This document shows positions 7,035-58,334 of a stretch of DNA of 64,000 bases, one piece after another (positions within the stretch are counted from its first letter, which is position 1; each line of letters opens with the position of its first letter). This DNA comes from Acidimicrobiia bacterium (lineage in GTDB: Bacteria; Actinomycetota; Acidimicrobiia; Spongiisociales; ZC4RG35). The stretch lies in the NCBI GenBank assembly GCA_025937235.1, contig JAICRU010000002.1, forward strand, positions 6,304 through 70,303. Direction: 5' to 3'. The translations under genes were made by a program, and so were the position numbers. A model generated the notes under the pieces. It worked only from the letters and a program-made list of their open reading frames with translations. It ran no database searches and was not told the origin of the DNA.

Positions 7035-8174
7035 CTACACGCGGTTGCCTGCGATCACGGCGGGTTGGCCGGGGCCGGCCTCGGCCCTGGCCTGCCTTGC
7101 TGCCGCAGGCACCATCAGCACGTAGACGGTGATGACCGGGGCCAGAGCACGTGTCGCATCGAAATAGAACTTCCACACGTCCACCACCATCGCCAACGCG
7201 ATCAAGGCAAACCCTGCCGTCATGTAGCCGATGAGGCTGGGCATCCTCCAGGCATGTTTCACGATCAGCAACGAAACGACCAGGAGGATCAGGCCGAACA
7301 TCATGTCCACCACGCTGTCCGGACGAGTCAACCACCTGACCACGGCGTCGTAGAAGCCCTTGAAAGGCAACCCGATAGCAGCCACGTCCTGCACGCCACT
7401 GTCCAGGTAGCCGATCTGGAACCGAAGATAGACCCACCAGATTGCGCTCGTGACGAAGGGGAGCCCAAGCACCGGCGGCACCTTGCGTTCCGTCTTCCAT
7501 ATGTAGATGATGGCGCCGACCGCGGCGACGATCATCGTCTCACGGGAGAGGGCTGCCAGAGATAGGAACACAGCTCCTGCGGTATACCTTCTTCGCATGA
7601 GCATCAGCACGCTGGCGATGAAGAACACCATCGCGAACACGTCTGCTGTGTCGATGATGCTCGACACCAGGATTCCGGGGTTGAAGACAAAAGCCAGTCC
7701 GAACCAGGCGCTGAGGCCCATTTCGAGGGCAAGACGCGCCGTCAGCCACCCGCCAATACCGAGAGCCAACATGTTCACGCCCCACAGGCTCCAGGCCGTG
7801 GCCAATGGAGGGAGTAGGCCGAACCCGCCGGCGATGGTGGGATAGACCATGCGCTGCGCCCGGTAGGACGGTCGATCGAGCTGATAGGCATGGTCGTCGG
7901 GCTGCTGGTAGAACGGATCCATTGCCTGCATGAAGAAGTACTTCCCATCGTGTCCGTCGCCCCCGGCTGGAACGACGTCACCGAGCATCCGTTGGCCGTA
8001 CCCGAGTTGTTCGGGCCTGGCCTCGGGAAACTTGATGAGGGCACTCGGGTTCCATTCGTTCCCTGAGAGAAGTGGCAGGGAGATATAGAGGCCGACCGCC
8101 AGGCTGATCAGCCCGACGAGTACCGGGATGATTTGACGGAGCCCGGCACTGCGCGTCGTAGTCGCCGTCGTCAT
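7035..8174 (-). CDS. Polytopic (about 10 TM) membrane protein; Wzy-like polymerase or GT-C-like glycosyltransferase candidate
   Basis: Very hydrophobic 379-aa product. Its start (MTTATTTRS, ATG 8174) overlaps the stop of the upstream acetyltransferase as ATGA. It is the last gene of the glycan cassette. Confidence 0.5.
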   Translation of the reverse strand: MTTATTTRSAGLRQIIPVLVGLISLAVGLYISLPLLSGNEWNPSALIKFPEARPEQLGYGQRMLGDVVPAGGDGHDGKYFFMQAMDPFYQQPDDHAYQLDRPSYRAQRMVYPTIAGGFGLLPPLATAWSLWGVNMLALGIGGWLTARLALEMGLSAWFGLAFVFNPGILVSSIIDTADVFAMVFFIASVLMLMRRRYTAGAVFLSLAALSRETMIVAAVGAIIYIWKTERKVPPVLGLPFVTSAIWWVYLRFQIGYLDSGVQDVAAIGLPFKGFYDAVVRWLTRPDSVVDMMFGLILLVVSLLIVKHAWRMPSLIGYMTAGFALIALAMVVDVWKFYFDATRALAPVITVYVLMVPAAARQARAEAGPGQPAVIAGNRV

Positions 8175-8749
8175 GCCGACTCCTGGAGACCGGTGGATCC
8201 CTCCGTGTACCGTCGGCCGCACTCCGGGCACGACAAGTCCGCGCCCAGCTTGGCCCCGCAGTCACAAACCCACCCCTCATGGCGGGCCGGATTACCGAAC
8301 ACCAGAGCATGATCGGGGACATCTCTCGTCACCACCGAGCCCGCCCCCACCATGCAGTTGGTACCGAGCCGGATGCCGCAGACAATCGTGCTGTTGGCAC
8401 CGATGGTGACCCGGTCTGCCACGACCGTCTTGACCCAATCCTCGGGGTAGGTCTGATAGCGGGCCCGTGGGGACACCACGTTGGTGAATACGGCGTTGGG
8501 GCCGAGAAAGACATCGTCACCGATCGAGACGCCATGCCAGATGAGCGAGTTGTTCTTCACCACCACACGATCACCCAGTCGAGCGCCGCTCTCGATAAAG
8601 GCGTGGTCGCCGATCTTGCATTCCTCACCGACCACGGCACCGTCCATGATGTGGGCGAAGGCCCACACCTTGGTCCCCTTTCCGACCTCGGCGGTTTCGA
8701 CGAGGGCAGTCGGATGCACATAGGTCTCGGTAGACACGTCAGCCGCCAT
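8171..8749 (-). CDS. Left-handed beta-helix (hexapeptide-repeat) sugar N-acetyltransferase, WbpD/PglD-like
   Basis: Repeated [LIV]-G-x-x-x-x hexapeptide units (VGEECKIGDHAFIESGARLGDRVVV...IGANSTIVCGIRLG). The position after a DegT aminotransferase is typical of nucleotide-aminosugar N-acetylation. Confidence 0.8.
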   Translation of the reverse strand: MAADVSTETYVHPTALVETAEVGKGTKVWAFAHIMDGAVVGEECKIGDHAFIESGARLGDRVVVKNNSLIWHGVSIGDDVFLGPNAVFTNVVSPRARYQTYPEDWVKTVVADRVTIGANSTIVCGIRLGTNCMVGAGSVVTRDVPDHALVFGNPARHEGWVCDCGAKLGADLSCPECGRRYTEGSTGLQESA

Positions 8750-9848
8750 TCGAACCCAGTGCCCGCCTCAGCACCTCGACCACTTCCTCCTGCTGGTCGG
8801 CGGTGATCCCCGGGTATATCGGCAGCGAGAGCATCTCTCTCGCTGCAGCCTCCGTCGCAGGGAAGTCGCCCTCTCGGTGGCCCATGAACGACAGCGCTCC
8901 CTGTAGATGCATGGGGATCGGATAATGGACGCCGGCTCCGACACCTTCGACGTTCATCGCCGTCATCACACGGTCGCGCTCAGGCACGCGGATCACATAG
9001 AGGTGCCAGACGTGCTCGTTACCCGCGAGAACCTTGGGCAGGACGACATTCTCGTCGTCGCGCAGCATCTCCGTGTAGCGATCGGCGGCCTGCTGACGCA
9101 GTTTGTTCCATTCAGCCAGGCGGGCCAGCTTGGCGCTGAGGACAACTGCCTGCATAGTGTCTAGCCGAGAGTTGAAGCCGACGACCGGGTGGTGGTACTT
9201 CTGAGGTGATCCCCAGTTGCCGAGGTTGCGAATGTGGCGGGCTAACCCGTCGTCGTCGGTCAGCACTGCACCGGCGTCGCCGTAGGCTCCGATGTTCTTG
9301 CCCGGGTAGAAGCTGGTAGCGGCAACCGTACCCAGCGAGCCAGCCGTGCGGCCGTGACGAAGGGCCCCCTGAGATTGGGCGGCATCCTCGATGATGAATA
9401 CATCTCCGATGATCGCCGACAGTTGCTCGACGGGAGCCGCCTGACCGAAGAGATGCACCGGCATCACTGCTCTCACGTCAGGGGTCAGCGCCCTCCCGAC
9501 GGCGTCGACATCGATCAGATAGTTGTCCGGGTCGCAGTCGACCAGCCGAACCTGTGCCCCAGCCCGAATGACGCCGAGGGTGCTGGCGATGAAGCTGTTG
9601 GCGGGGACGATCACCACATCCCCGGCCCCGATACCGAGGCCGCGAACGGCCATCTCGAGGGCGTCAGTGCCGCTCGAGACCCCGACACAGTGGGCCACAT
9701 CACAGAACTCTGCGAAGTCCTGTTCGAAACGCGCGACCTGCGGGCCCTGGATGAAGGCCGTCGCCCCCATCACATCTTCCAGTCCTGCCATCACTTCGTC
9801 GGCGATCTGCGCGTGCTGCCACCCCAGATCGACAAGAGGGACTCTCAT
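8739..9848 (-). CDS. DegT/DnrJ/EryC1/StrS-family PLP-dependent sugar aminotransferase (WbpE-like)
   Basis: Conserved motifs of the family, including the PLP-lysine region (SFYPGKNIGAYGDAGAV). Start chosen at MRVPLVDLGWQ (ATG 9848), which overlaps the upstream stop as ATGA. The ORF track's earlier Met gives an Arg-rich extension that looks spurious. Confidence 0.85.
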   Translation of the reverse strand: MRVPLVDLGWQHAQIADEVMAGLEDVMGATAFIQGPQVARFEQDFAEFCDVAHCVGVSSGTDALEMAVRGLGIGAGDVVIVPANSFIASTLGVIRAGAQVRLVDCDPDNYLIDVDAVGRALTPDVRAVMPVHLFGQAAPVEQLSAIIGDVFIIEDAAQSQGALRHGRTAGSLGTVAATSFYPGKNIGAYGDAGAVLTDDDGLARHIRNLGNWGSPQKYHHPVVGFNSRLDTMQAVVLSAKLARLAEWNKLRQQAADRYTEMLRDDENVVLPKVLAGNEHVWHLYVIRVPERDRVMTAMNVEGVGAGVHYPIPMHLQGALSFMGHREGDFPATEAAAREMLSLPIYPGITADQQEEVVEVLRRALGSNGG

Positions 9849-18455: not shown

Positions 18456-18629
18456 ATGTTTGCTCTGTGGACTAAGTTCACCAGCTGGATTCAGGAGGAG
18501 AAGGGTGCCTCGATGGTTGAGTACGCCCTGCTCGTCGTCCTGATCGCCATCGTTGCTCTCGTCGCCGTGCAGCTCGCCGGCAATGAGGTCTCCTCGACCT
18601 TCAGCGAGATCGGTTCCGGCCTGGCGTAA
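18456..18629 (+). CDS. flp: Flp-family pilin (paralogue 2); 57 aa, below the ORF-track cut-off
   Basis: ATG 18456 preceded by AAGGAGGGG. Product is MFALWTKFTSWIQEEKGASMVEYALLVVLIAIVALVAVQLAGNEVSSTFSEIGSGLA. Found by manual translation. Confidence 0.75.
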   Translation: MFALWTKFTSWIQEEKGASMVEYALLVVLIAIVALVAVQLAGNEVSSTFSEIGSGLA

Positions 18630-18648
18630 GCGTCAGAGATTGAGTATG

Positions 18649-18682
18649 AGAGGGGGCTCGCACTTCGGTGCGGGCCCCCTCT
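18649..18682 (+). terminator. Strong stem-loop with UUCG tetraloop downstream of flp-2
   Basis: AGAGGGGGCuCGCAC-UUCG-GUGCGgGCCCCCUCU: a roughly 15-bp GC-rich stem capped by a UUCG tetraloop, 20 nt after the flp-2 stop. Confidence 0.45.
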
Positions 18683-18819
18683 CATGTGTGCGACTGCTGC
18701 CTGGAGCACAACGGGATCTGGTCGCGCCGGTCATTTTTCCGATATTCCGACTCAGGTTTTTGACCGAACGGGTCGATATATCGATGCAAGCCAATTTCGT
18801 TGACCCAAGGAGGGGCTTC

Positions 18820-18993
18820 ATGCTTGCTTTGTGGACCAAGGTAGTGAGCTGGGCGAAGGATGAGAAGGGTGCCTCGATGGTTGAGTACGCCCTGCTCGTT
18901 GTCCTGATCGCCATCGTCGCTCTCGTCGCCGTGCAGCTCGCCGGCAATGAGGTCTCCTCGACCTTCAGCGAGATCGGCTCCGGGCTCAGCTGA
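18820..18993 (+). CDS. flp: Flp-family pilin (paralogue 3), near-identical to paralogue 2
   Basis: ATG 18820 preceded by AAGGAGGGG. Product is MLALWTKVVSWAKDEKGASMVEYALLVVLIAIVALVAVQLAGNEVSSTFSEIGSGLS. The ORF track reported it only as the tail of a 146-aa TTG-started ORF. Confidence 0.75.
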   Translation: MLALWTKVVSWAKDEKGASMVEYALLVVLIAIVALVAVQLAGNEVSSTFSEIGSGLS

Positions 18994-19136: not shown

Positions 19137-19301
19137 GTGTCACGGTTGTGGACCAGGCGGTTAAGCGAGGAAACGGGCGCCTCCATGGTGGAATACGCCT
19201 TGCTCGTGGTCCTCATCGCCATCATCGCCCTCCTCGCCATCAGGCTTGCCGGTACTCAGGTCTCCGAGGCCTTCAGCGAGATCGGCTCTGGTCTCCAGTG
19301 A
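19137..19301 (+). CDS. flp: Flp-family pilin (paralogue 4), GTG start
   Basis: GTG 19137 preceded by GGGAGG. Product is VSRLWTRRLSEETGASMVEYALLVVLIAIIALLAIRLAGTQVSEAFSEIGSGLQ. There is no upstream in-frame ATG before a TAA at 19059. Confidence 0.65.
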   Translation: MSRLWTRRLSEETGASMVEYALLVVLIAIIALLAIRLAGTQVSEAFSEIGSGLQ

Positions 19302-19307
19302 CCGAGT

Positions 19308-20654
19308 TCATGGTCTCAGAACGACGAAATCCTGGTCTTCGTATTCCTCCGACCAGCCGGTAGCCTCGAGCTCGTCGACCAGATCTTCGTCGGCCCTCAG
19401 GAGCACCTGTCCGATACCATCCCGCTCGAACACCGGCTCCCAGTCACGCTTCAGATCCCTGACCTCTACGTATTCGATCATCCGATCGCCATAGAGCTCG
19501 GCCCGATCGTCGATGTAGACCAATCGCTCCGGGCCCTCAGCCCAGATCAGATAGCCGCCTGCGCTGTCGTCGTGGAAGGTGGGCACATGGGCCAGCCACC
19601 CCGCGGCGGCGACCGGAAAGCGCTCCTCGTCGATCGACCCGTCGGAGATGATGAACCACGGTGTGACGAGCACAACGAGGCCAAAGACGGCTGCCGCGGG
19701 CGCAGAGAACCGTTTCCTGGCGCCGGCGGCCATGTCAGCGAGGGCGACACCCATCAGGGGCACAAGAGCGATCCACGCCGGCGGGACAGCCCGGGTCGCG
19801 GTCAAGGCAAGGAGCAGAAAGGGAACGAGGATGATCAGGTGACGAGGGGTGACTCGTTCTCGAACGGCGCCTATCACGATCAGGCCGATCCCGATCAGGA
19901 ACGGGGCGAAGACCACCGACAGGAGCTCAGGGCGTCTCCACTCGGAGAGAAGGGCCAGGGCAGGCCCGGCGTCGGAAAAATCGAGCAGGAACTCGAGAAC
20001 CCCCAACCCGTGCGCGGTGAGGAACGTGGCCAGCCCGGCGACGATCGCCGTCGGGAGCGACTTCCACTCCTTCTCGAGGAGGATGGTCAGACCCACATAG
20101 GCCAGCCCGATCACGAAGCTCCCATGAACGGAGGCCCAGATCCAGAAGAGAAAAGGGATGGTCCATCGGGTGACGGGTCGGTCCCACGCCACGACCACCA
20201 GAACGAAGAGGGCAAAGGAGAACAAGACCGGCCTGGGGACCAGGAAGGAGATCATCAGCAGCGTGGACAGGGCCACGATGATCGCCGTCGACCATTCGCT
20301 CCTCGACCGGCGGTAGGCGACCAGCCCGATCCCCAAGAATGTGATCGAGCTGAGCAGGAGCATCATCGGTGGCACGAAGCCGAGGCCCCAGTTGGACTCG
20401 CCCCAGGCATAGACGAGCTCGGCCAGCCAGCTCTGGGTCAGCCAGCGCTCCCCCAGCATGGTGAAGGAAAAGGGGTCGGCGGTGAGTACCTCTCCGGCGT
20501 TGGCCTGCAGCTCTCCTGCCCGGACATGCCACAGGAAAGAGTTGTCCCGGATCGGGGCCCAGGCATCGATCACCAAGGCCACAAACGGCACCAGGAGAGC
20601 CAGGTGCGCCAGAGAGAAGTGTCGCTGAGTCGGTCCCGGCGCCGCCAGCGCCAT
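19308..20654 (-). CDS. Uncharacterised polytopic membrane protein (about 10 TM plus a roughly 108-aa C-terminal soluble domain); last gene of the tad operon
   Basis: The start ATG overlaps the tadC stop as TGATG, so it is translationally coupled. There is a large first extracytoplasmic loop with conserved Asp residues and an acidic C-terminal domain. No A24 prepilin-peptidase motif (GGDVK) and no recognisable Tad family signature. Confidence 0.6.
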   Translation of the reverse strand: MALAAPGPTQRHFSLAHLALLVPFVALVIDAWAPIRDNSFLWHVRAGELQANAGEVLTADPFSFTMLGERWLTQSWLAELVYAWGESNWGLGFVPPMMLLLSSITFLGIGLVAYRRSRSEWSTAIIVALSTLLMISFLVPRPVLFSFALFVLVVVAWDRPVTRWTIPFLFWIWASVHGSFVIGLAYVGLTILLEKEWKSLPTAIVAGLATFLTAHGLGVLEFLLDFSDAGPALALLSEWRRPELLSVVFAPFLIGIGLIVIGAVRERVTPRHLIILVPFLLLALTATRAVPPAWIALVPLMGVALADMAAGARKRFSAPAAAVFGLVVLVTPWFIISDGSIDEERFPVAAAGWLAHVPTFHDDSAGGYLIWAEGPERLVYIDDRAELYGDRMIEYVEVRDLKRDWEPVFERDGIGQVLLRADEDLVDELEATGWSEEYEDQDFVVLRP

Positions 20655-21595
20655 CAGTTGTTGGCGAATGCGCCGCCGATCGAAATGGCGGCCGGGCCCA
20701 ACAACACGATGAAGAGGGCCGGGAAGATGCAGAACACCAGCGGGAAGACCAGCTTCACCGGCGCAGCGAACGCCTTCTCCTGGGCTCGCTGGCGACGCTT
20801 GACTCGCATCTCGTCGGCCTGCACCCGCAGCACCCGGGCGATCGTCACACCGAAGGCCTCGGCCTGGATCATGGCCAGGATGAAGGAGCGGAGCTCCTCG
20901 AGATCGGTGCGGTCCATCAGATGCCTCATGGCGTCGCGTCGGCTCACACCCACCCGGGTTTCTTGGAGCATCCGGAAGAACTCCTCCGAGAGCGGTCCAG
21001 GAACGGTGGCGACGACCCGTGACAGGGCGGCATCGAAACCGAGCCCGGCCTCGACCGAGATGACCAGCAGGTCGAGCACGTCGGGCAGGGCCCGCAGCAT
21101 TGTCTGACGCCGGTCATCGATCTTTCTTTGCAGCCATGCATCGGGACCGAAGAAGCCGAGCACGATCGGCATGCCGAATAGGAAGATCCGCTGCATGCTG
21201 TCACTGCCGAAGTCGGACAGGAAGAAAGCGGCGAACAGACCGGCCACCGTGGTCAGGAGCTTGATGACGATGAACGATGGGGCGTCGAGGTTGCCGGGGT
21301 TGCCCGCCAGCACCAGCTGATGCTGCTTCTTCTCCAGGTAACCCACCGGGGTGAACCGGCGCAGGAAACCAGAGAGCTTGAGCACCACGGGGCCGATCGT
21401 CCGTTGTGCCAGGGGCTTGGACAGCTCCTCGTCGCGGACCGAGCCGGAACTGGCCCGGCCGTAGACGGCGAGCCTGTTGTTCATGTCCTCCCGGGCCCTG
21501 GTGACACCGAGCCCGATCCAGACGATTACGAAGAAGACCAGAGCCGACACCGTGACCACGGCGAGCATCTGACCGTCGAGTGCTGTGATGTTCAT
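20654..21595 (-). CDS. tadC: Tad pilus assembly inner-membrane platform protein TadC (T2SS-F/GspF domain)
   Basis: 313 aa with a single GspF-type domain flanked by TM helices. Follows TadB and is coupled to it; the upstream stop overlaps this start as ATGA. Confidence 0.8.
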   Translation of the reverse strand: MNITALDGQMLAVVTVSALVFFVIVWIGLGVTRAREDMNNRLAVYGRASSGSVRDEELSKPLAQRTIGPVVLKLSGFLRRFTPVGYLEKKQHQLVLAGNPGNLDAPSFIVIKLLTTVAGLFAAFFLSDFGSDSMQRIFLFGMPIVLGFFGPDAWLQRKIDDRRQTMLRALPDVLDLLVISVEAGLGFDAALSRVVATVPGPLSEEFFRMLQETRVGVSRRDAMRHLMDRTDLEELRSFILAMIQAEAFGVTIARVLRVQADEMRVKRRQRAQEKAFAAPVKLVFPLVFCIFPALFIVLLGPAAISIGGAFANN

Positions 21596-21708
21596 ACTTC
21601 GATGTTCACGATCTTCCGGAGCCAGAAAATTCCACCGGCCATGAGGATGAGTCCTGCGACGATGGCGATCCGGCCCAACGTCGCGGCGAGCAGCGGCTGG
21701 AAGTATTA
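21592..21708 (-). other. In-frame continuation of the TadB domain after a TAA codon (final transmembrane helix of TadB)
   Basis: Immediately after the TAA at 21708..21706 the same frame reads YFQPLLAATLGRIAIVAGLILMAGGIFWLRKIVNIEV and ends with TGA overlapping the tadC ATG. This is the canonical TadB C-terminal helix. Confidence 0.6.
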
Positions 21709-23547
21709 ACGGTTGTTGAAGCAGAGGAAGGCACCCAAGGCGAATGGCAGAGAGCCGAGCACGATCGCCGAGATCCGGCCCTCGGCGGTGAGCGCCTTGA
21801 TCTCTCCCTTGAGCCGGTTGCGGGCCAGCATGGTGTCGGCCACCGTCTGCAGAACCTCGGCAAGGTTGCCCCCGACCTCACGCTGGATCTCGATTGCCAT
21901 CGTGGCCCACTCGAAGTCCTTCGAGTTCGTGCGTTCCACGATTCCCTGCAGCGCTTCTGGGACCGAGCGACCGAGTCGGGACTCGACGACGGCTCGGGAG
22001 AACTCCCGCGCTGTCGGATCCGGCGCTTCGGCAGCCACCGCTTCGATTGCCTGGAGCAGGGAGTAGCCGGCCCGGAGGGAGGTCGACAGCAGGGTGAGCG
22101 TGTCGGGCAGCTGCTTCTCGAACCTCTTCCGCTCTCGGTTGCCGGCCCACCTGACCAGGATCATGAACCCGAGGAGCATGATTCCGAAGGTGGCCAGGCC
22201 CCACAGCGGCGAGTTGAAGATGGCGACGAAGACACCGCCCACCGCGGCGAGCCCGATCATGGCCAGGATCGCCTCGCCGGGGGACATCGGCACGTTGGCC
22301 TGCTCCAGGGCGGCGTTCACTCCCGAGAGCATCCCGCGCCGGCGTACCTCTTCTTCGGCAGCCTGGCTGAAGCGGTTGATCAGAGGGATCCGCTGCAGAA
22401 GCGGCTTCTTTTCCTCCTCGCCCGTTCTGGACCGCCGCCCATAGGCCTGGAGCCGTTTGGCGAAGCGACCCCCTCCCTGCTCCTCTTCACGGCCGAAGAG
22501 GATGATGATGAAGAGGAAGGCGGTCAGACCGATCCCTGCCGCACCGATGAGGGCCAGGTTGGTGATGCTGAGGGGGGAGCTGCTCTCGACGACGCTTCCC
22601 GTCACAGGGACCGGGACGGTTGTCGTTGTCGGGGCCATCGTGGTGGTGGTCGCATACCCGCTCACTGGGAAGGCGACCGTCGAGGTCAGGCCGCCGGGGT
22701 AGGTGGCCGCGAACTCGGCTTCGCCGGGCGCGGCCACCGGGGAAACGAATCGGGCAACGAGGGTGTTGCTGATCTCACGGCTGATCTGGCCGTAGAGTCC
22801 GGAGAGCTGCGCCGGATCGGGAGTCGACAGGAACAGCCCGCCGCCCGCGGTGGCGAACGCCGACACCGCCTCGGGGTTGAAGTCGGGTGACTCCAGGGCC
22901 ACGCCGAACACACGGGCATCTCCGGCCTCGATCGCTGCGATCGCCGCGTCCGCCGTGGCGGCAGACGCGGTGTCCTCGCCGTCGCTGAGCACGATCATGT
23001 TGTTGAGCTGGGTCGGGGGAACGCCCTCGAACAGCGACATGCCGAGGATCACACCGTCGTTGAGGGCTGTCTCACCATCGGCGACGAGTGCATCGACCCG
23101 CTCGTGCAGCACCTCGGCATTGGTGGTGAACCCGGTCTGGACCACCGCGGTGTCGGCGAAGCTGACTATCGCGATCGAGTCCTCGGGGCGCTTCTGGTCG
23201 ATGAAGCTGTTGGCAGCCGTTTTGGCCGAGTCCATCGGCGCTCCGAGCATCGAGCCTGAGGTGTCGATCACCAGAACCACACCCACCGGGACGCTGGACT
23301 CGCCGAGCGGGGCCACCTCTAGATCCGAAACCGGTTGGCCGTCGACCGTGACCGCCAGCTGGGCCGGGTCCGGGGCCTCGGGAAGGTTCCGGAACTCGAC
23401 CACCATCTGGGTCTGGCCGCCTTCGGCATAGCGCGAGCCGTTGATATCCACGATCTCGATCTCGGGCGCAGTGGTCTGCGCGATCGCAGCGGTGCTCACC
23501 CCGAGCACGAGGGCGCCGACCAGGGCAGAGAGACGTCTCAAGCTCAT
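21706..23547 (-). CDS. tadB: Fusion protein: signal peptide, von Willebrand factor A domain, Thr/Pro-rich linker, TM, then a TadB (T2SS-F) platform domain. The TadB domain is truncated by an in-frame TAA.
   Basis: N-terminal signal peptide (LSALVGALVLGVSTAAIAQ). VWA MIDAS motif DxSxS (VIDTSGSM). Low-complexity TTTTMAPTTTTVPVPV linker, then a TM helix and a GspF-type domain. The start overlaps the tadA stop as ATGA. Confidence 0.7.
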   Translation of the reverse strand: MSLRRLSALVGALVLGVSTAAIAQTTAPEIEIVDINGSRYAEGGQTQMVVEFRNLPEAPDPAQLAVTVDGQPVSDLEVAPLGESSVPVGVVLVIDTSGSMLGAPMDSAKTAANSFIDQKRPEDSIAIVSFADTAVVQTGFTTNAEVLHERVDALVADGETALNDGVILGMSLFEGVPPTQLNNMIVLSDGEDTASAATADAAIAAIEAGDARVFGVALESPDFNPEAVSAFATAGGGLFLSTPDPAQLSGLYGQISREISNTLVARFVSPVAAPGEAEFAATYPGGLTSTVAFPVSGYATTTTMAPTTTTVPVPVTGSVVESSSPLSITNLALIGAAGIGLTAFLFIIILFGREEEQGGGRFAKRLQAYGRRSRTGEEEKKPLLQRIPLINRFSQAAEEEVRRRGMLSGVNAALEQANVPMSPGEAILAMIGLAAVGGVFVAIFNSPLWGLATFGIMLLGFMILVRWAGNRERKRFEKQLPDTLTLLSTSLRAGYSLLQAIEAVAAEAPDPTAREFSRAVVESRLGRSVPEALQGIVERTNSKDFEWATMAIEIQREVGGNLAEVLQTVADTMLARNRLKGEIKALTAEGRISAIVLGSLPFALGAFLCFNNR

Positions 23548-24902
23548 CGGCCCCTTGCGAATGGCTCGGGATCGAACAGGTCGGCGGGGAGCCGGATGCC
23601 CTGGTTCTCGAGATCTTGGGAGAAGGTCGGCCGGATCCCGGTCGCCTTCAAGCGGCCTTTGTAGACACCGTCCTCGTCGACCCCCATTCCGTAGTCGAAG
23701 AGGAAGATGTCCTGGAGGGTGATGATCTCCCCTTCCATGCCTTCGACCTCGGTGACATGAGTCACCCGGCGGGTGCCGTCCTTGAGACGGGACACGTGGA
23801 TGATCAGGTCGACTGCAGCCGCGATCTGCTCCCGGATGGCACGCACGGGGAGATCGAAGCCGGCCATCAGCACCATGGTCTCGATACGGGAAAGGGTGTC
23901 TCTCGGGCTGTTCGAGTGCACAGTCGTCAGGGAGCCGTCATGACCGGTGTTCATGGCCTGGAGCATGTCGAGGGCCTCGGCGCCTCGAACCTCACCGACC
24001 ACGATCCGGTCCGGACGCATACGCAGTGTGTTCCTGACCAGGTCACGGATGGTGACGGCGCCCTTGCCCTCGATGTTGGCCGGCCGTGACTCCAGCGTCA
24101 GGACGTGCTCCTGATGGAGCTGGAGCTCGGCGGCGTCTTCCACGGTCACGATTCGCTCGTCGCCGGGGATGTATGAGGACATCACGTTGAGGGTGGTGGT
24201 CTTACCGGAACCGGTACCGCCGGAGATCAGGACGTTGAGCCGGCCCCGGACACATGCTCTGGCGAAGTCGGCCACACGCTGGGTGATCGTGCCGAAGTTG
24301 ATCAGGTCCGCTTCCTGATAGGGATCCACCGCGAACTTTCGGATGGTTAGGAAAGGTCCGCCGATCGCCAGCGGGTGGATCACGGCATTGACACGAGACC
24401 CATCAGGGAGGCGGGCGTCCACCATCGGGGTCGCTTCGTCGACGCGACGACCGATCTGGCCGACGATCTTGTCGATGATGCGGCGGAGGTGGACCTCGTC
24501 GACGAACTTGACGTCGGACAGGACGATCTTGCCCCGCTTCTCGAAGTAGACGTCGTAGGGGCCGTTGGCCATGACTTCGGTCACGTCCGGGTCGTTGAGC
24601 AACGGGTCGATTGGCCCGTAGCCGAGCACATCCGAGGCGATCTCGTTGAGCAGGGCACGACGGTCGGCGGAGGTGAGGGGAAGACCCTGCTCCTGGTCGA
24701 CCGCCCATTCCAGCATCTCGAGGACGCGAAGACGGAGCTCGGCGTCCGACATCTGGCGGTCGTACAGGGTCGGGCCCAGCTCCTCGACCACCTTGAAGTG
24801 AAGACGTCCCCTGAGCTCGCTCAGGGCATCCGAGCGAGTGGAGCTGACCTCCTGGGTCTCTGTCTGCCTGGCGGCTGCGACTCTCTCTGAAAGCGATGGC
24901 AC
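23544..24902 (-). CDS. tadA: Tad pilus assembly ATPase TadA/CpaF (secretion NTPase family)
   Basis: Walker [16 protein letters not shown], Asp box, Walker B and His box ([14 protein letters not shown]), all typical of CpaF/TadA. Confidence 0.9.
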
Positions 24903-24918
24903 TGTTATTTACCTTCCA

Positions 24919-26103
24919 CTATTTGCGACCGAAGAGCCCGCCCCTGGACGTGCCTTCGGGAATCTTCCCGGCGATCAACTCGGCGACACTCTCGAAACCC
25001 TTGGCGATCTTCCCCCTGGGGTCTGTCTCGACGATGGGGCGTCCCTCGTTGACCGAGTTGGGGACGGCGGCATCGGAAGGGACCGAGGCCTTGATCTCCA
25101 TCTTGAGGGCGCTCTCGATCTCCTTGTTGTCCAGCTTCGCCTTCGAGTTGTTCCGATTCATGACGAGCTGGACGTTCTGGGTCGAGAACTTGAGCAGCCG
25201 CAGGGTCTCCAGGGCGAGCTTGGCGTTTTTGACCGAAGGGAGATCCATGTCCACCACCATGAGCACGTGGTCCGCCTTCTCGATGAGGGACAGGATCAAC
25301 TCGTCCAGCATCGAGGCCGTGTCGACCACGACGTAGTCGTAGCTCTCCTGGAGGATGTCGAGCATCTGCATCAGGCCTGCCGTGGTGATGTCGTCGGCGA
25401 AGGCCGGCTCGAGGGGAGCAGCCAGTACCTTCAGGCCGCTGGGGTGCTCCGTGAGCAGAGAGTCGAGCATCTCTCCATCCAGGTGATGGAGCTCATGGGC
25501 TGCGTTGACCATGGTGAACCTCGGCTCCAGTTGGAGGAGGAGGCAGACATCCCCGAACTGGAGGTCTGCGTCGACCAGCACCACTTTCTTGTCCGGGAAC
25601 CGGTTCAAGAGGAGGGCGACGTTGGTGGCGGTCACGGTCTTCCCGCTCCCGCCCTTGGCCGAGGTCACGGTCACGATCGCTCCCCGCTGCTCGGTGCGAA
25701 CGGGCTCGGCCGCCGGCTTGCCGGCGGTGCGCCGCTTCAGCACGTCGTGAGCGAACTGCTCGATCGCCGCCTCGATCTTCGACTCGTCGAGAGGGGCCTC
25801 GATGACATCGGAGACACCGGCTCGCATGGCACCACGGAGGAGATCGGCCGTGACCGTGTCGGCGACCATCATCAGGATCAGAGCCGGATCCTGGTTGTGC
25901 AGGTTCCGGATGTGCTCCAGCGACTCGTCGTTCGAGAACGAGGGGCCGAGCAGGAGCATCCTGAGGTCGCCTGACTCCGCGGTCTGACTCGCCTCCTCTA
26001 TGGAGCGAGCGACCGGGAGCCGGCCCTCGAAGAGCTCCTTGGCCGCGGAGACGAATTCATCGTCTTTGTCCACGACCAGCAGGTTGTGCTCAGCCATCGA
26101 CAT
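24919..26103 (-). CDS. tadZ: TadZ/CpaE: atypical receiver-like N-domain fused to a ParA/MinD-type ATPase
   Basis: Deviant Walker A (TSAKGGSGKTVTATNVA) and an N-terminal CheY-like ARD domain. Confidence 0.8.
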   Translation of the reverse strand: MSMAEHNLLVVDKDDEFVSAAKELFEGRLPVARSIEEASQTAESGDLRMLLLGPSFSNDESLEHIRNLHNQDPALILMMVADTVTADLLRGAMRAGVSDVIEAPLDESKIEAAIEQFAHDVLKRRTAGKPAAEPVRTEQRGAIVTVTSAKGGSGKTVTATNVALLLNRFPDKKVVLVDADLQFGDVCLLLQLEPRFTMVNAAHELHHLDGEMLDSLLTEHPSGLKVLAAPLEPAFADDITTAGLMQMLDILQESYDYVVVDTASMLDELILSLIEKADHVLMVVDMDLPSVKNAKLALETLRLLKFSTQNVQLVMNRNNSKAKLDNKEIESALKMEIKASVPSDAAVPNSVNEGRPIVETDPRGKIAKGFESVAELIAGKIPEGTSRGGLFGRK

Positions 26104-26116
26104 GGTCGAACCTCAA

Positions 26117-27040
26117 TCAGCTTCCAAATATGTCGTCCAGCAGATTCCCGCCGAACAGGTTGAGTGTGGTCACACCGGTGGTCTCCACCTCGACGAAGTC
26201 GCCGGGGACCAGGGTCAGCCAGATCGAGCCGTTCTCGGATGCGTAGGCAATCCGCTCGGCCTGCTCAGGTGTGACCTCGAGAGTGAACGTGGTGTCGTTA
26301 CCGGTGTCTTCCTCGACGGGCTCACCCTCGGGGGTGGTGTCGCCGGTCGTTGCCGGATCGGCCTCCACCGTGTCGGGGGCGTCCTGATCGGGCCTGATGT
26401 CACGCCCGGTGGCCATCACCGGCAGCCCCTGCAGAACGAAACGGGTGTAGGTCACCACCGCGATGGTCTCCTCGCTGGGAGGCTGGCCTTCGACCGGAGC
26501 AGCCGGCTGCTCGGCGATGCCGCTCAGCTCCTCGGGGAGCAGGTCCTCGGGGATGTCGATGGTGATGATCATATTGACCCTGTCGCCTGGCTCTACGAAC
26601 CCGTTGATGCCCCTGATGTTGTCGGTGGAGATGGTCATGGCCTGCTTGCCGGAGGGAATCTCCTCGGCGAGAGGGATCACGTCGACCGTGATGGAAGTCC
26701 ACTGTGACTCGGTCAGGATCGACCCGGCCGCGATCGGGCCCGCTGCGACGCGATCGGCGAGCACCTGGTTCAACTGCTCAGCGGAGGTGATGGCGCCGAC
26801 CGGCACATCCTCGGCCTGGTCTTCGCTCAGGGCGATCTGCGTCCCGCCGCTGTTGAAGTCCGAGAGGAGGATGGCCCCGTCCGTGCCCTCGGGGATGGCC
26901 TCCCCGGCGCGGTAGACCTCGACGATCTCCTGGCCTTCGGTTATCTCGTTCTCGACGTTCTGGAGATAGTTCCAGACAGCCCATGCGGCGAGCCCGGCCA
27001 GTATCAAGGCCACTAACAAGACGATGGCTCTCCTACCCAT
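26117..27040 (-). CDS. cpaB: Flp pilus assembly protein CpaB/RcpC (SAF + RcpC domains)
   Basis: N-terminal TM anchor (MGRRAIVLLVALILAGLAAWAV) followed by SAF and RcpC-like domains and an acidic Thr-rich tail. Start at ATG 27040 is preceded by GAAGGGGA. The ORF-track start at 27091 lacks an RBS. Confidence 0.75.
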   Translation of the reverse strand: MGRRAIVLLVALILAGLAAWAVWNYLQNVENEITEGQEIVEVYRAGEAIPEGTDGAILLSDFNSGGTQIALSEDQAEDVPVGAITSAEQLNQVLADRVAAGPIAAGSILTESQWTSITVDVIPLAEEIPSGKQAMTISTDNIRGINGFVEPGDRVNMIITIDIPEDLLPEELSGIAEQPAAPVEGQPPSEETIAVVTYTRFVLQGLPVMATGRDIRPDQDAPDTVEADPATTGDTTPEGEPVEEDTGNDTTFTLEVTPEQAERIAYASENGSIWLTLVPGDFVEVETTGVTTLNLFGGNLLDDIFGS

Positions 27041-31740: not shown

Positions 31741-32028
31741 CTACGTTGGAACCAGGTGAGACCGGAATCGCAGTGCCGGCAGGCACTGGAGTCGATCGAG
31801 GCGGAAGTCAAGGACTGCGAGATCGGTCGACGGCTCCCGTCCGGCACCAACCGCTACCGGTACACGAGATACATGTTCACCAACGCGTCGACCGACATCC
31901 TGGGCATCTTCACCGATGCCCTCGATCTGCTCGGCGTGCACTGGACCCAGACCAATACCCGTACCATCTCGATCGCCCGAAGAGACGACGTCGCGTTCCT
32001 GGACAGCTTCATCGGTCCGAAGTGTTGA
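31741..32028 (+). pseudogene. 3' remnant of a protein-coding gene (no start codon); unidentified product
   Basis: Strong GC3 bias. The sequence ...SGTNRYRYTRYMFTNASTDILGIFTDALDLLGVHWTQTNTRTISIARRDDVAFLDSFIGPKC* is protein-like, with Y/F/N/T/I usage atypical of GC-rich noise. There is no in-frame ATG/GTG before the MFTNAS Met. Confidence 0.3.
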
Positions 32029-32047: not shown

Positions 32048-32134
32048 GCCGGAGTGCTGGAACTGGAAGACAGTATGGTCTCAAACACCATTGGGGGAAA
32101 CCCCGTGTGGGTTCGAATCCCACCTCCGGCACCA
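32048..32134 (+). tRNA. tRNA-Leu (anticodon CAA), class II with long variable arm, CCA encoded
   Basis: Manual fold. Acceptor GCCGGAG/CTCCGGC. D-arm GCTGGAACTGGAAGACAG. Anticodon stem ATGGT/ACCAT with loop cTCAAac. Long variable arm TGGGGGAAACCCCGT. T-arm GTGGG-TTCGAAT-CCCAC. Discriminator A, then CCA. 87 nt. Confidence 0.8.
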
Positions 32135-32162: not shown

Positions 32163-32181
32163 AGCGGCTCGGCCAGCCAGG

Positions 32182-32698
32182 ATGGCTGCATTATTCGGGC
32201 TTCTCGTCGCCGTCTCGATGTTCATCATCGTTGGGTTCGTGTCATCAGACGACGGACCGGGCGACGCCTTGGTGCAGCACGGGTTGGTCATCCTGGTCGT
32301 CATTGCCGCCGTACCGCTCGTCGTGATCTTCGGGTCGGGTGACCTTTCCCGGGTCGCCATCCCGGGCGGTGCGATGACGGCGGCCTGCTTGCCACCATGT
32401 TCGGCGGCAACTTCGCCGGTCTGGCCATGGCGATCGGGGGAGTTCCAATTCTCGTCTCGGCAGCATCACGAGGTGTCCAACTCTCCCTCGGCCGCGTGGT
32501 CAGGCTCATTGGCTACACCTCCTGCTCGTGGCGGCGATGTGGCTGTCTCTCGGCGACACGACGCTGCTGACGAAGACGACCGCCGTCCTCCTCGCCGGGA
32601 TCCTCGCTGACCGGTCTTCAGCCTTCGGGTACCGCCTCGACCACAGCTTGAGCATCTCCCACTATTACCGCGTCACCGGATTCGACGCCGCGCCGTAA
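32182..32698 (+). pseudogene. Decayed small membrane-protein gene spread over three reading frames (two apparent frameshifts)
   Basis: High-GC3, TM-like segments continue from frame 1 (MAALFGLLVAVSMFIIVGFV...AIPGGAMTAA, 32182-32385) to frame 2 (GLLATMFGGNFAGLAMAIGGVPILV..., to about 32512) to frame 3 (HLLLVAAMWLSLGDTTLLTKTTAVLLAGILADRS...FDAAP*, ending 32698). No single frame is intact. Confidence 0.3.
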
Positions 32699-49309: not shown

Positions 49310-50230
49310 CTACCCGTTCCCCGGCTGACGCACAGAATCCAGGACCGCGACGAGGTCGGGCGGAAGCGGGGAGGCGAAGCTGACCGGGTCGCCACTGACC
49401 GGGTGGGTCAGATCGAGTCGATGGGCGTGGAGAAATATGCGTCTGCTCTTCGCCGGGACTGGCAGCGTCGAATAGGTCTTGTCGCCGACCACGGGATGAG
49501 CGATGGCGGCGAGATGGACCCTGATCTGATGGGTCCGACCGGTGCCGAGCCCGATCTCGAGCAGGGATAGATCCTTGCCAGGGAAGTACTCCAAGATCTC
49601 GTAGTGGGTCACGGCAGGCTTGCCTCCCGCCACCACTGCCCGTCGGGTGGGTCTCGACTGGTCCCTCCCGATGGGGGCATCGATCGTCCCGGTCGGAGCG
49701 GAGAACGCTCCATGGACCAAGGCGGTGTAGAGACGACTGATGCGGCGTCCGGCCAGGTCGGCTCTGAGCTTGTCGAAGGCGCTCGTGGTGCGGCCCACCA
49801 GAAGGAGGCCCGACGTGTCACGATCGAGCCTGTGCACCAGGCCCCATCGCCCGATGTCACCAACCCCCTCAAGCTCGGGGTAACGATGGAGAAGACCGGC
49901 GGCGAGTGTGGGGCCGCGATGTCCCGAGCCGGGGTGAACGACCAGCCCGGCCGGCTTGTCCACCACGATCAGATCGGAGTCCTCGTGCACCACCCGGAGC
50001 TCCATCGCCTCGGGCTCCAGCCCGCCGGATTCGGTTGGTGAAGGGGCCTCCACCACGCCTCCGGCCCGAACCCGGTCGCTGGGGCGCGCCGGCATCCCAT
50101 CGATCAGCACGCCCCGCTCGATCAGGGCACGAGCCCGGGCCCGGCTCAACTCCAACATCTCGGCCAGAGCCTTGTCGACGCGGTCGCCATCGAGGCGCTG
50201 CGGCACCTCGAGTCTCAGCGCGTCTGCCAC
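49310..50230 (-). CDS. rluD: RluA-family 23S rRNA pseudouridine synthase (RluD-like)
   Basis: S4 domain followed by the catalytic motif HRLDRDTSGLLLV. GTG start at 50230 overlaps the lspA 3' end by 16 nt. The ORF-track 513-aa call fuses it to an out-of-frame extension. Confidence 0.8.
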   Translation of the reverse strand: MADALRLEVPQRLDGDRVDKALAEMLELSRARARALIERGVLIDGMPARPSDRVRAGGVVEAPSPTESGGLEPEAMELRVVHEDSDLIVVDKPAGLVVHPGSGHRGPTLAAGLLHRYPELEGVGDIGRWGLVHRLDRDTSGLLLVGRTTSAFDKLRADLAGRRISRLYTALVHGAFSAPTGTIDAPIGRDQSRPTRRAVVAGGKPAVTHYEILEYFPGKDLSLLEIGLGTGRTHQIRVHLAAIAHPVVGDKTYSTLPVPAKSRRIFLHAHRLDLTHPVSGDPVSFASPLPPDLVAVLDSVRQPGNG

Positions 50231-56665: not shown

Positions 56666-57285
56666 GCCACCCAGGCGATAGTGGCTATCCGCTGGGCGGT
56701 CCCTGTCCTGCGATGGCTGTAGAGGGACTCATCGTGCATGGTGCAGGTGCCCAACAACCAGACATCGAGCCCCTCTAGCTCTCGTCTTATGACAGAGGCG
56801 AGATCCACCGACGTGGCGCCCCACCGCGTCTCCCTCACATGGTCGGGGAAACGCTCCGCCACGTCGGGCCCGACCTCGAAGCAACACGGGCCTATCCCGG
56901 GCCCGATCGCCGCCCTGATAGGAGGGTGCCCATGGGCGGTCATCTCCGCCCGTAGGGCGGTGACCACACCTTCGGCCGCCCCGCGCCAGCCGGCATGGGC
57001 CACTCCCACGGCCGAACCGGCGTGCAGGACCACACCAAAGCAATCGGCCGTGAACACCGCCAGCGGGAGTCGGGGCACTTCGCTCCACAGGCCATCGGCC
57101 TCACCGAGCTCGCCCGGCCCGAGTGCCCGAACCATGTTGGTCCCGTGCACCTGACGCACGGTGGCCCAATCCCTAGATATCCCGAGCCAGGAGGAAACGG
57201 CGGAGCGGGCGGTCAGATCGTTCCGCTGGTCCCCATCCGCCGCTCCGGTGAAGGCCGCCCCGTCGACACCGGGGGGCCGGTTCAT
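56662..57285 (-). CDS. pgeF: YfiH/PgeF laccase-domain purine nucleoside phosphorylase (YlmD)
   Basis: Conserved Cys/His motifs ([10 protein letters not shown]..., [10 protein letters not shown]). Confidence 0.8.
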
Positions 57286-58334
57286 CCCTGGACGAAGGTA
57301 GGGATGTCGAGCACGTCGTCGCCCTCCTCGAAACCGGAGTATGACCGGCTCGCGGCAGACCGGGCGGGGGCGGCACGTCCCTGGCGCCTTCGCTCGAATC
57401 CGGCGGCGATCACCGTCACCTTCATCTCCTCACCGAGATCGTCGTCGACGATGGCGCCGAAGATGATGTCGGCCTCGGTGTCGGCGTGGTCGGCCACGAC
57501 CCGGGCGGCCTCGGTCGCCTCGTGCAGAGTCATCGACGAGGGCCCAGAGACAGACAGCAGCACGCCTTTGGCACCCTCCATCGAGGTCTCCAGCATCGGG
57601 CTCGAGATGGCACGCTCGGCGGCCTGCTTGGCCCGATTCTCACCCGTGGCCCGCCCGATCCCCATCACCGCGGACCCGGCGTCGGACATGATCGTGCGGA
57701 CATCGGCGAAGTCCACATTGATCAACCCTGGAGTGGTGATCAGGTCGGTGATGCCGGCCACACCGCTCATGAGGACCTCGTCGGCGAGGCGGAACGTCTC
57801 GGCGATCGGTGCGGTGGGATCGCCCACCTCCAGGAGCCGGTCGTTCGGGATCACGATGAGCGTGTCCACTGCGTCTTTGAGGTCGTCGATGCCCTGCTCG
57901 GCGTGAACGGCACGTCGTCTGCCTTCGAACCCGAAGGGCCGGGTCACGACGCCCACGGTCAGGGCACCGACCGACCGGGCCACCTCCGCCACTACCGGGG
58001 CCCCGCCGGTGCCCGTGCCACCACCCTCACCGGCAGTGATGAAGATCATGTCCGAGCCCTTGAGCACGTCCTCGAGCTCGGCCTTGTGCTCCTCGGCCGC
58101 GGCCCGGCCGATCTCGGGGTTGGCGCCGGCGCCGAGACCCCAGGTCACTTCACGGCCGATGTCGAGCTTGACGTCCGCATCGCTCATCAGGAGCGCCTGG
58201 GCATCGGTGTTGAGAGCGATGAACTCCACGCCACGTATGCCCGCATCGACCATGCGGTTGACGGCGTTGACGCCGCCCCCGCCGATCCCTACGACTTTTA
58301 TGACAGCCAGATAGCCGCCGCTCGAAGAGCTCAC
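57282..58334 (-). CDS. ftsZ: Cell division GTPase FtsZ (350 aa, short C-terminal linker)
   Basis: Tubulin signature GGGTGTG ([15 protein letters not shown]) and T7 loop. Confidence 0.95.

Follow-up and report, generated by a model that had tools for sequence, protein, structure and literature searches.

The vWA–TadB gene and its locus

The window (the whole stretch of 64,000 nucleotides that was analysed) carries a Tad/Flp pilus locus in which a vWA–TadB fusion gene on the minus strand, 23547..21592, is opened by an ATG at 23547 and interrupted by an in-frame TAA at codon 614 (21708..21706). The frame as read is ...LGAFLCFNNR-TAA-YFQPLLAATLGRIAIVAGLILMAGGIFWLRKIVNIEV-TGA, with exactly 37 sense codons in the same frame between the two stops, and the TGA (21594..21592) shares the tetranucleotide ATGA with the start codon of tadC (21595..21593). 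A first-pass annotation made from the letters alone had described this interruption, the distance of 37 codons and the overlap with tadC, and all three hold on recounting. It had also taken the segment beyond the stop for the last transmembrane helix of TadB; indeed this segment encodes a hydrophobic helix (aa 625-643) that matches the C-terminus of 118 of the best 120 of 935 homologues. The remark that TAA is an unusual stop here is likewise borne out, as a crude set of 42 putative genes contains 34 TGA, 7 TAG and a single TAA, which is codon 614 of tadB itself.

Table 1. Coordinates of the genes and sequence features at the tad locus, as positions in the window.
Feature	Position	Strand	Description
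Two Flp/Fap pilin genes	18583..18993, 19137..19301	+	PF04964 in the corresponding L004 genes, mapped; orientation convergent to the tad operon
448-aa protein downstream of tadC	19308..20654	-	Pfam and NCBIfam both without a match; conserved on L003 and L004
tadC	20654..21595	-	313 aa, T2SSF; ATG overlaps the natural tadB TGA; protein identical to L004 and L005
Cut-off 3' end of tadB	21592..21705	-	37 in-frame sense codons and TGA; last TM helix and conserved ...WLRKIVNIEV C-terminus
Inverted repeat	21656..21684	.	Perfect 10 bp in relatives, GCGACGATGG-N9-CCATCGTCGC; DNA hairpin of about -12 kcal/mol
Window-private substitution sites	21667, 21678, 21686, 21700, 21706, 21708, 21721		Patch of 21667..21721; all transversions
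In-frame TAA	21706..21708	-	GAC (Asp) in L001, L004, L005 and the outgroups L002 and L003
Truncated vWA-TadB ORF	21706..23547	-	613 codons and TAA; 99% identity to the 651-aa P0001; signal peptide, vWA (aa 90-252), TM helices, T2SSF (aa 484-608)
cpaF/tadA secretion ATPase	23544..24902	-	452 aa, T2SSE; intact; identical to the L001/L006 copy
CpaE/TadZ-like ParA-family ATPase	24919..26103	-	394 aa, intact; Pfam CbiA/ParA/AAA_31 on the L001 orthologue
rcpC/cpaB	26117..27019	-	300 aa, RcpC domain, intact; mapped onto the window from a relative

The TAA lies in the short loop that joins hydrophobic helices 592-610 and 625-643, the last two of TadB. The reading frame as written in the window stops at codon 614 and does not give a full-length protein with its C-terminal transmembrane helix. 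The claim that the stop interrupts the TadB domain stands in part: the stop is inside the gene, but the T2SSF match (PF00482; model positions 2-123 of 125, E = 2e-20) is complete before it. With a score of 73.4 bits against a gathering cut-off of 25.2, this match identifies a TadB-type platform protein of the GspF/PilC superfamily. The context is that of a Tad/Flp operon, as the CpaF/TadA ATPase, TadC, RcpC/CpaB and the Flp pilins are all present (from the gene tables of contigs with 99.8% identity, transferred to the window), the order is the familiar rcpC-cpaE-cpaF-tadB-tadC with flp pilin genes nearby, and the tadB stop/tadC start overlap and the C-terminal helix of the homologues follow the usual arrangement. 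The gene differs from the TadB of other Tad pili in the fusion of an N-terminal signal peptide and a vWA domain to TadB, an architecture common to the best 120 of 935 hits, the named ones being Acidimicrobiia MAGs, and in the frame cut at codon 614, which is found in the window only. The relatives are labelled at source either 'tight adherence protein B' or 'type II secretion system F family protein [Acidimicrobiia bacterium]'. A PDB sequence search returned no solved relative of the protein, and a protein look-up gave no exact match on record for the 613-aa truncated product.

Codon 614 and the surrounding substitution patch

We compared the window with three assemblies of the same species, L001 (GCA_025937995.1), L004 (GCA_035759135.1) and L005 (Logan SRR14661188), at 99.6-99.8% nucleotide identity. 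All three have the sense codon GAC (Asp) at codon 614, and D or E is found in 17 of 17 close relatives read at this position (P0001-P0003 and 14 members of the P0003 cluster). Within the best 120 of 935 homologue hits the C-terminus falls at residue 651 in 118 and at residue 613, where the orthologue comparison suggested in the first pass could have placed it, in none. Column 614 reads D73/E32/S9/G2/T2 over 118 sequences. A stop at codon 614 is absent from all 120 homologues and from the three same-species contigs, each of which has a sense codon there, mostly for D or E.

The stop is one element of a patch of 55 nt (21667–21721) that holds seven substitutions private to the window, every one a transversion. 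Two of them fall in a single codon and turn GAC into TAA (in gene sense, G->T at 21708 and C->A at 21706). Six of the seven alter the protein, giving W609C, D614*, L616F, D621A and M624L, and the remaining one is synonymous; C609, F616 and A621 each occur in 0 of 118 homologues. One private change precedes the stop, and the final 25 codons of tadB are unchanged. The first-pass annotation had seen the stop and missed this wider cluster, to which the equally window-private C609, F616, A621 and L624 belong.

In density and composition the patch differs from the background. The remaining ~1.9 kb of tadB differs from the same-species assemblies by one synonymous change, and the background among these assemblies is 2.5 differences per kb, so that a local change of 13% (7 in 55 nt) is set against 0.25%. 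Furthermore, L001 has in this patch a private set of three different transversions, at 21687, 21713 and 21722, all non-conservative (W609L, N612T and D621Y). The resulting 10 differences (7 in the window and 3 in L001) within 56 nt have a Poisson P of ~1e-15, and all 10 are transversions, compared with 63 transitions to 53 transversions in the background (P = 4e-4). The consensus bases at the 10 variable sites are G, G, A, G, C, G, G, A, A and A. The other two of the four same-species copies, L004 and L005, follow the family consensus throughout the patch, a segment that is near-invariant over 118 homologues with identity down to 65%. Two contigs break close by, L001 at 325 nt downstream of the patch and L005 at 11 nt from it (21733). 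Pattern scans of genome and metagenome contigs, with N at the variable sites and with a 35-nt invariant flank, returned no additional same-species copies of the patch. Outside the patch the window-private differences comprise 9 transitions and 10 transversions, about half of them synonymous. Another implausible private transversion lies in FtsZ (58142), where R65W falls in the TRGLGAG motif and three other assemblies have AGG. The window also has a 1-nt insertion at 32548.

Origin of the patch

We propose that the TAA in tadB is very probably part of a local patch of sequencing or assembly error in the consensus and not biology. The patch exists, is private to the window and has a make-up unlike that of evolution; its cause is read from this pattern, and an error is the likely one. 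The first-pass annotation had listed an error, an inactivating mutation and readthrough or recoding without choosing among them; the mutation pattern strongly favours the error, and the sense codon in relatives contradicts readthrough or recoding. An error appears most likely because the stop sits within a seven-substitution patch that no other same-species copy carries, and it is favoured over mutation because the 55 nt hold seven private transversions, the stop codon alone having two, and a second assembly is damaged at the same place. The intact state of the other tad genes, with TadC and CpaF proteins identical to those of relatives, also counts towards an error, as does the FtsZ change as a second implausible private transversion.

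The sequence at the start of the patch suggests how such an error may have arisen. Inverted repeats and GGC motifs are known to trigger Illumina sequence-specific errors and assembly gaps, more commonly in high-GC genomes, and error sites are recognised by an inverted repeat of >8 bp, a GGC or both shortly before the run of miscalls (Nakamura et al. 2011, Nucleic Acids Res 39:e90, PMC3141275). Among relatives the start of the patch falls within a perfect 10-bp inverted repeat (21656-21684), which the change at 21678 breaks in the window, and GGC motifs lie inside this repeat and just 3' of it (21664-21666 and 21695-21697). The resemblance extends to the two assemblies that are aberrant at the patch and the two contigs that end nearby. 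At the level of reads, such errors are marked by a single read direction, low base quality, a dip in coverage and miscalls that repeat the bases before them. By hand reading, the putative miscall equals one of the preceding one or two bases in 7 of 10 cases in the plus direction and 6 of 10 in the minus direction, where a rough estimate gives ~0.44 as expected, a difference that speaks clearly neither for nor against dephasing. In the proposed sequence of events, the GC-rich 10-bp hairpin and the GGC motifs would make the spot hard to sequence through dephasing, and the assembler would have bridged a stretch of very low usable coverage with one or a few low-quality reads. In two-colour Illumina chemistry each single-channel miscall is a transversion, and such miscalls, if this chemistry was used, could yield an error set made up of transversions throughout. 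The underlying gene would then be an ordinary 651-codon vWA-TadB with GAC (Asp) at codon 614 and its last transmembrane helix translated, and the TGA/ATG overlap would couple the translation of the two platform proteins.

Several observations weigh against an error. With its length of at least 64 kb the source contig does not suggest generally poor coverage, and the window-private differences outside the patch resemble ordinary strain polymorphism. In a departure from the pattern of sequence-specific errors, the window has six more inverted repeats that are perfect over 10 bp, and these show no substitution clusters where other assemblies cover them. Moreover, if an assembler accepts only k-mers with a multiplicity of at least 2, identical errors would have to be present in two reads.

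A real and very recent inactivating lesion, produced in this strain by one multi-substitution event or a rapid series, would leave TadB without its last transmembrane helix, abolish the coupling to tadC and make the Tad pilus locus one that freshly bears a pseudogene. The TAA is present in the deposited sequence, on a long contig that otherwise agrees well with relatives, individual strains commonly lose pili, and clustered mutations can arise near hairpins. Even so, we regard such a lesion as unlikely, as it must account for a local change of 13% against a background of 0.25%, with no transition among its substitutions, and we know of no bacterial mutational process with this density and spectrum. 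It would also demand independent damage, with different changes, to a second strain within the same 56 nt, and it is absent from every other assembly of the species compared (L001, L004 and L005). No other decay accompanies it at the locus, neither in the rest of tadB nor in the TadC and CpaF proteins. Relaxed selection following a real stop was considered and set aside, given that the stop is preceded by one of the changes, that nothing has altered in the final 25 codons and that divergence across the genome comes to only 0.2%. Reinitiation to yield a separate helix peptide was likewise rejected; no Shine-Dalgarno-like sequence precedes the in-frame TTG624, which is itself a window-private change from ATG.

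The different private changes of two assemblies within 56 nt, and the two contig breaks at a point where assemblies often fail if a region is hypervariable, are what might be expected of targeted hypermutation, whether a DGR variable region with its template outside the window or a hairpin-directed mutator, that diversifies or switches off tadB. DGR variable regions are indeed short C-terminal patches that vary between near-identical strains, but the tadB patch lies in a membrane-embedded loop and helix and not in a ligand-binding fold, and it is strongly conserved across the family, with the exact consensus in half of the same-species copies. The 64 kb contain no template-like repeat of the patch, the best match being one of 15 nt, no reverse transcriptase is among the genes called on relatives covering 18.5-64 kb, and the changes, with G->T, G->C and C->A among them, are not adenine-specific; nor is a DGR template expected to generate stops. 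On these grounds a DGR was rejected, and targeted hypermutation as a whole seems most improbable. A real, recurrent hotspot associated with the hairpin, in which dense transversions before the last transmembrane helix struck two strains independently (seven and three changes), turning off the pilus platform and uncoupling tadC here, would be a very doubtful reading. Gene conversion, or a chimera with a paralogue or related species, was dismissed because not one of about 135 relatives has C609, F616 or A621.

Template switching at a quasi-palindrome was also tried. By hand count, 21700-21710 would pair with 21590-21600 at 7/11 positions before the changes at 21700, 21706 and 21708 and at 10/11 after them, and about 0.4 such complementary pairs would be expected by chance in the scanned region on a rough estimate. 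The complementary stretch goes no further, four of the seven changes are left unexplained and the local 10-bp repeat is made worse in the window, not better, which counts against template switching as a general explanation. A second transversion cluster (31940-32026) was examined as a second premature stop and discarded, as the 396-aa ORF called there on L001 matches no family, extends across a gene for tRNA-Leu and is thus spurious. A scan for further in-frame stops with high-GC3 sequence on both sides told little, because its filter lets antisense frames through as well.

Programmed readthrough or recoding, in which the TAA would be partly decoded as sense to give TadB products of 613 and 651 aa, can be given hardly any credence. 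It draws on the in-frame stop followed by 37 intact, conserved codons that reach the natural TGA/ATG overlap, but an intact downstream frame is to be expected after any very recent change or error. The stop is missing from all relatives examined, even contigs 99.8% identical, so that it is not conserved even within the species and there is nothing conserved to be programmed. The adjacent codons are damaged too, having changed to residues never seen in the family, and no stimulatory element was identified at the stop. Furthermore, TAA is not known to be used for Sec or Pyl, and TAA-T, the context of this stop, is the one at which E. coli terminates most efficiently.

Meaning for the Tad pilus of Acidimicrobiia

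With a consensus error as the preferred reading, the interest of the site lies largely in how it may be misread. Annotation pipelines would probably call a pseudogene here, or a truncated protein and an orphan fragment, and such an annotation would wrongly suggest the loss of the Tad pilus or prompt a story of recoding. The comparison of same-species contigs, combined with a search for changes that are private, clustered, transversion-only and non-conservative, offers a recipe for recognising consensus errors in MAGs that does not depend on reads. The stop itself would carry little biological weight, as the gene beneath it is probably the ordinary vWA–TadB of an Acidimicrobiia Tad pilus locus.

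The vWA-TadB gene and its conservation at codon 614

Read from the ATG at 23547, the tadB frame holds 613 sense codons before an in-frame TAA, continues through 37 more (YFQPLLAATLGRIAIVAGLILMAGGIFWLRKIVNIEV) and closes at a TGA that overlaps the tadC ATG as ATGA. On re-reading this frame, the coordinates, codon count and overlap reported by the first-pass annotation were all right. Its claim that the stop interrupts the TadB domain stands in part, with the last transmembrane helix lost beyond a stop in the loop separating the final two hydrophobic helices, but the Pfam T2SSF match is uncut and ends five residues before the stop. Among 42 putative window genes, a crude set, 34 end in TGA and 7 in TAG, the sole TAA being tadB codon 614.

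Features of the tadB locus and of other intervals discussed
Feature	Position	Strand	Remarks
vWA-TadB gene, to the TAA	21706-23547	minus	aa 1-330: N-terminal signal peptide, vWA domain, then Thr/Pro-rich linker
von Willebrand A domain	aa 90-252	minus	
T2SSF domain	aa 484-608	minus	73 bits
Final two hydrophobic helices	aa 592-610, 625-643	minus	three further hydrophobic helices besides this pair
In-frame TAA	21708..21706	minus	
TGA	21594..21592	minus	
tadC	ATG 21595..21593	minus	next gene after tadB; 313-aa T2SSF protein
cpaF (T2SSE ATPase), CpaE/TadZ-like ParA ATPase, rcpC			upstream of tadB
448-aa protein	19308-20654	minus	downstream of tadC
Flp/Fap pilin gene	18583-18993	plus	Flp pilin genes lie downstream of tadC
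Patch	21667-21721		seven private substitutions
Inverted repeat	21656-21684		
tRNA-Leu(CAA)	32048-32134		
ftsZ	57282-58334	minus	

The surroundings are those of a standard Tad/Flp pilus locus, and the named relatives of the tadB product are all Acidimicrobiia MAGs. The vWA and T2SSF architecture is common to the 120 best database matches (the named ones being Acidimicrobiia) and differs from the classical description of TadB, which does not include a vWA module, periplasmic or extracellular, on the pilus platform protein. The 448-aa protein adjoins tadC with overlapping start and stop and is kept in relatives at 448-457 aa; without a match in Pfam or NCBIfam, it is a candidate for an uncharacterised component of the Acidimicrobiia Tad locus. 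The pilin product is called as 136 aa on L004, a contig of GCA_035759135.1, far longer than the 46-57 aa of its neighbours there and of the Flp pilins on the outgroup contig L003; either an extended pilin or a wrongly called start could explain this.

A search of 5.8 billion proteins returned 935 matches, and the best 120 were aligned (65-99% identity). These are 642-659 aa long, save a few shorter or contig-truncated entries, and 118 of the 120 reach a C-terminal end at the residue matching 651. The possibility that orthologues end at the equivalent position did not hold, as none of the 120 ends at residue 613. At the alignment column of the stop, 73 have D, 32 E, 9 S, 2 G and 2 T; furthermore, the homologous proteins P0001 (651 aa) to P0003 and the 14 listed members of P0003's 90%-identity cluster all have D or E at codon 614 and the same C-terminus. 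Judged on these alignments, the TAA is unconserved.

A patch of private substitutions around the stop

Same-species contigs, retrieved by exact-protein look-up, share 99.6-99.8% DNA identity with the window; three other assemblies cover the site (GCA_025937995.1, contigs L001/L006; GCA_035759135.1, L004; Logan SRR14661188, L005), and L007-L018 cover other parts of the window. Codon 614 is GAC in all three, and the TAA therefore takes two substitutions in one codon, G->T and C->A. Across the patch L004 and L005 match the family consensus exactly. Over the 1956-nt gene the window differs from L004 at eight positions, of which the single one outside the patch is synonymous (22945) and the other seven fall inside 55 nt (21721, 21708, 21706, 21700, 21686, 21678 and 21667). 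All seven are transversions private to the window, the three other assemblies concurring against it. Besides one synonymous change, they produce W609C, D614* (two hits), L616F, D621A and M624L, and not one of 118 homologues has C609, F616 or A621. The same stretch of L001 holds three changes private to that contig (21722, 21713, 21687); each is again a transversion and non-conservative (W609L, N612T, D621Y).

Other assemblies cover 45.5 kb of the window, and the background differences there are scattered at 2.5 per kb, with 63 transitions and 53 transversions. For ten differences in 56 nt the Poisson P is ~1e-15 (~7e-13 allowing for all windows that size), and for ten transversions of ten against the background split P = 4e-4. 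Local substitution density in the window patch is 13%, with zero transitions and almost no synonymous changes, and tadB is otherwise under clear purifying selection, retaining 97% protein identity across 130 nucleotide differences from the outgroup contig L002. As far as sequence comparison can tell, this pattern is not like sequence evolution. The patch lies 11 nt from the end of the L005 contig, and L001 breaks off 325 nt downstream; together with the different damage to a second, separately deposited assembly in the same 56 nt, these contig ends point to systematic difficulty in sequencing or assembling the locus.

Origin of the patch

Among the three options raised by the first-pass annotation, the seven private transversions and the GAC of the same-species copies best support error, and the TAA is very probably part of a consensus error patch. 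The stop as a feature is most probably not genuine; the underlying gene is of a known kind. The undamaged patch starts within an inverted repeat that is GC-rich and perfect over 10 bp (GCGACGATGG-N9-CCATCGTCGC, ~-12 kcal/mol as DNA), with GGC motifs inside and following it. Elsewhere, only six perfect inverted repeats of this size occur in the window as written, and these show no comparable difference clusters where other assemblies cover them. In two-colour Illumina chemistry A carries both dyes, C and T one each and G none, so that a single-channel miscall is always a transversion and a transition requires a flip of both channels; such miscalls would explain the all-transversion spectrum. 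The predicted signature of sequence-specific error is a miscall that copies one of the preceding one or two bases; by hand-reading, this is so in 7/10 (+) and 6/10 (-) cases, against a roughly estimated chance of ~0.44, a margin that decides neither way. Illumina sequence-specific errors, whose described triggers are inverted repeats and GGC motifs, produce stretches of consecutive miscalls as well as assembly gaps, and are commoner where genome GC is high (Nakamura et al. 2011, PMC3141275). Poor base calls, once in the consensus, would give a stretch like the patch, and sequence-specific sequencing error is its most likely cause.

A real clustered mutation, leaving tadB a freshly inactivated pseudogene, is improbable, as it needs an unknown process striking the same spot twice, in two strains, in a Tad locus where no decay was seen elsewhere. 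Decay following a real stop is ruled out by the single change upstream of it, the intact last 25 codons and genomes 0.2% apart, and a recombination tract by patch residues found in no relative. A DGR or other targeted mutator is a good deal less likely still: no template repeat of the patch was found anywhere in the 64 kb, no reverse transcriptase was seen among the genes called on relatives covering 18.5-64 kb, the changes are not adenine-specific and the family hardly varies in this segment. Quasi-palindrome template switching was rejected as a general explanation, accounting for no more than three of the seven changes with a match at chance level. Recoding or readthrough is the most remote of these; the intact downstream frame is expected of any very recent change or of an error, the TAA is not shared by homologues and a TAA-T context is unfavourable to readthrough.

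Other anomalies and consequences

A second transversion-only cluster separates the window from GCA_025937995.1, with five in 87 nt (31940, 31945, 31953, 32009, 32026) and another at 32175. The five lie in non-coding DNA directly upstream of tRNA-Leu(CAA), where one other assembly gives coverage and either side may be derived; the 396-aa ORF called here on L001, which takes in the tRNA, is spurious. In ftsZ, a private A/T transversion at 58142 changes the conserved Arg of an FtsZ motif (codon 65) to Trp (TGG, against AGG in three other same-species assemblies), a change that is implausible for an essential gene and perhaps a further consensus error of the same assembly. A private 1-nt insertion (T) at 32548, relative to two other same-species assemblies, falls within a 171-aa hypothetical ORF of GCA_035759135.1 (~32182-32697, plus strand), and would be a frameshift if that ORF is a real gene. 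Short private clusters are found in other MAGs of the species too: five differences in 43 nt at 49958-50000 (two transversions, three transitions) are private to GCA_025937575.1, and either an error patch or a tract of micro-recombination could account for them. On L007 (GCA_035759135.1) no gene is listed at 7810-8986, the interval equivalent to ftsZ, which is called on L008 and L009; L008 (GCA_025937575.1) also has shorter rhomboid (205 vs 280 aa) and dnaE (1077 vs 1168 aa) products than L007, which hints at more disruptions or calling differences among these MAGs.

The tadB patch provides a worked example of finding MAG consensus errors without reads. Were the stop real, TadB would lack its last transmembrane helix, and its C-terminus would come to lie across the membrane from its normal side. 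Translation would end 111 nt short of the tadC start and not on it, weakening coupling, and loss of the Tad platform would be likely.
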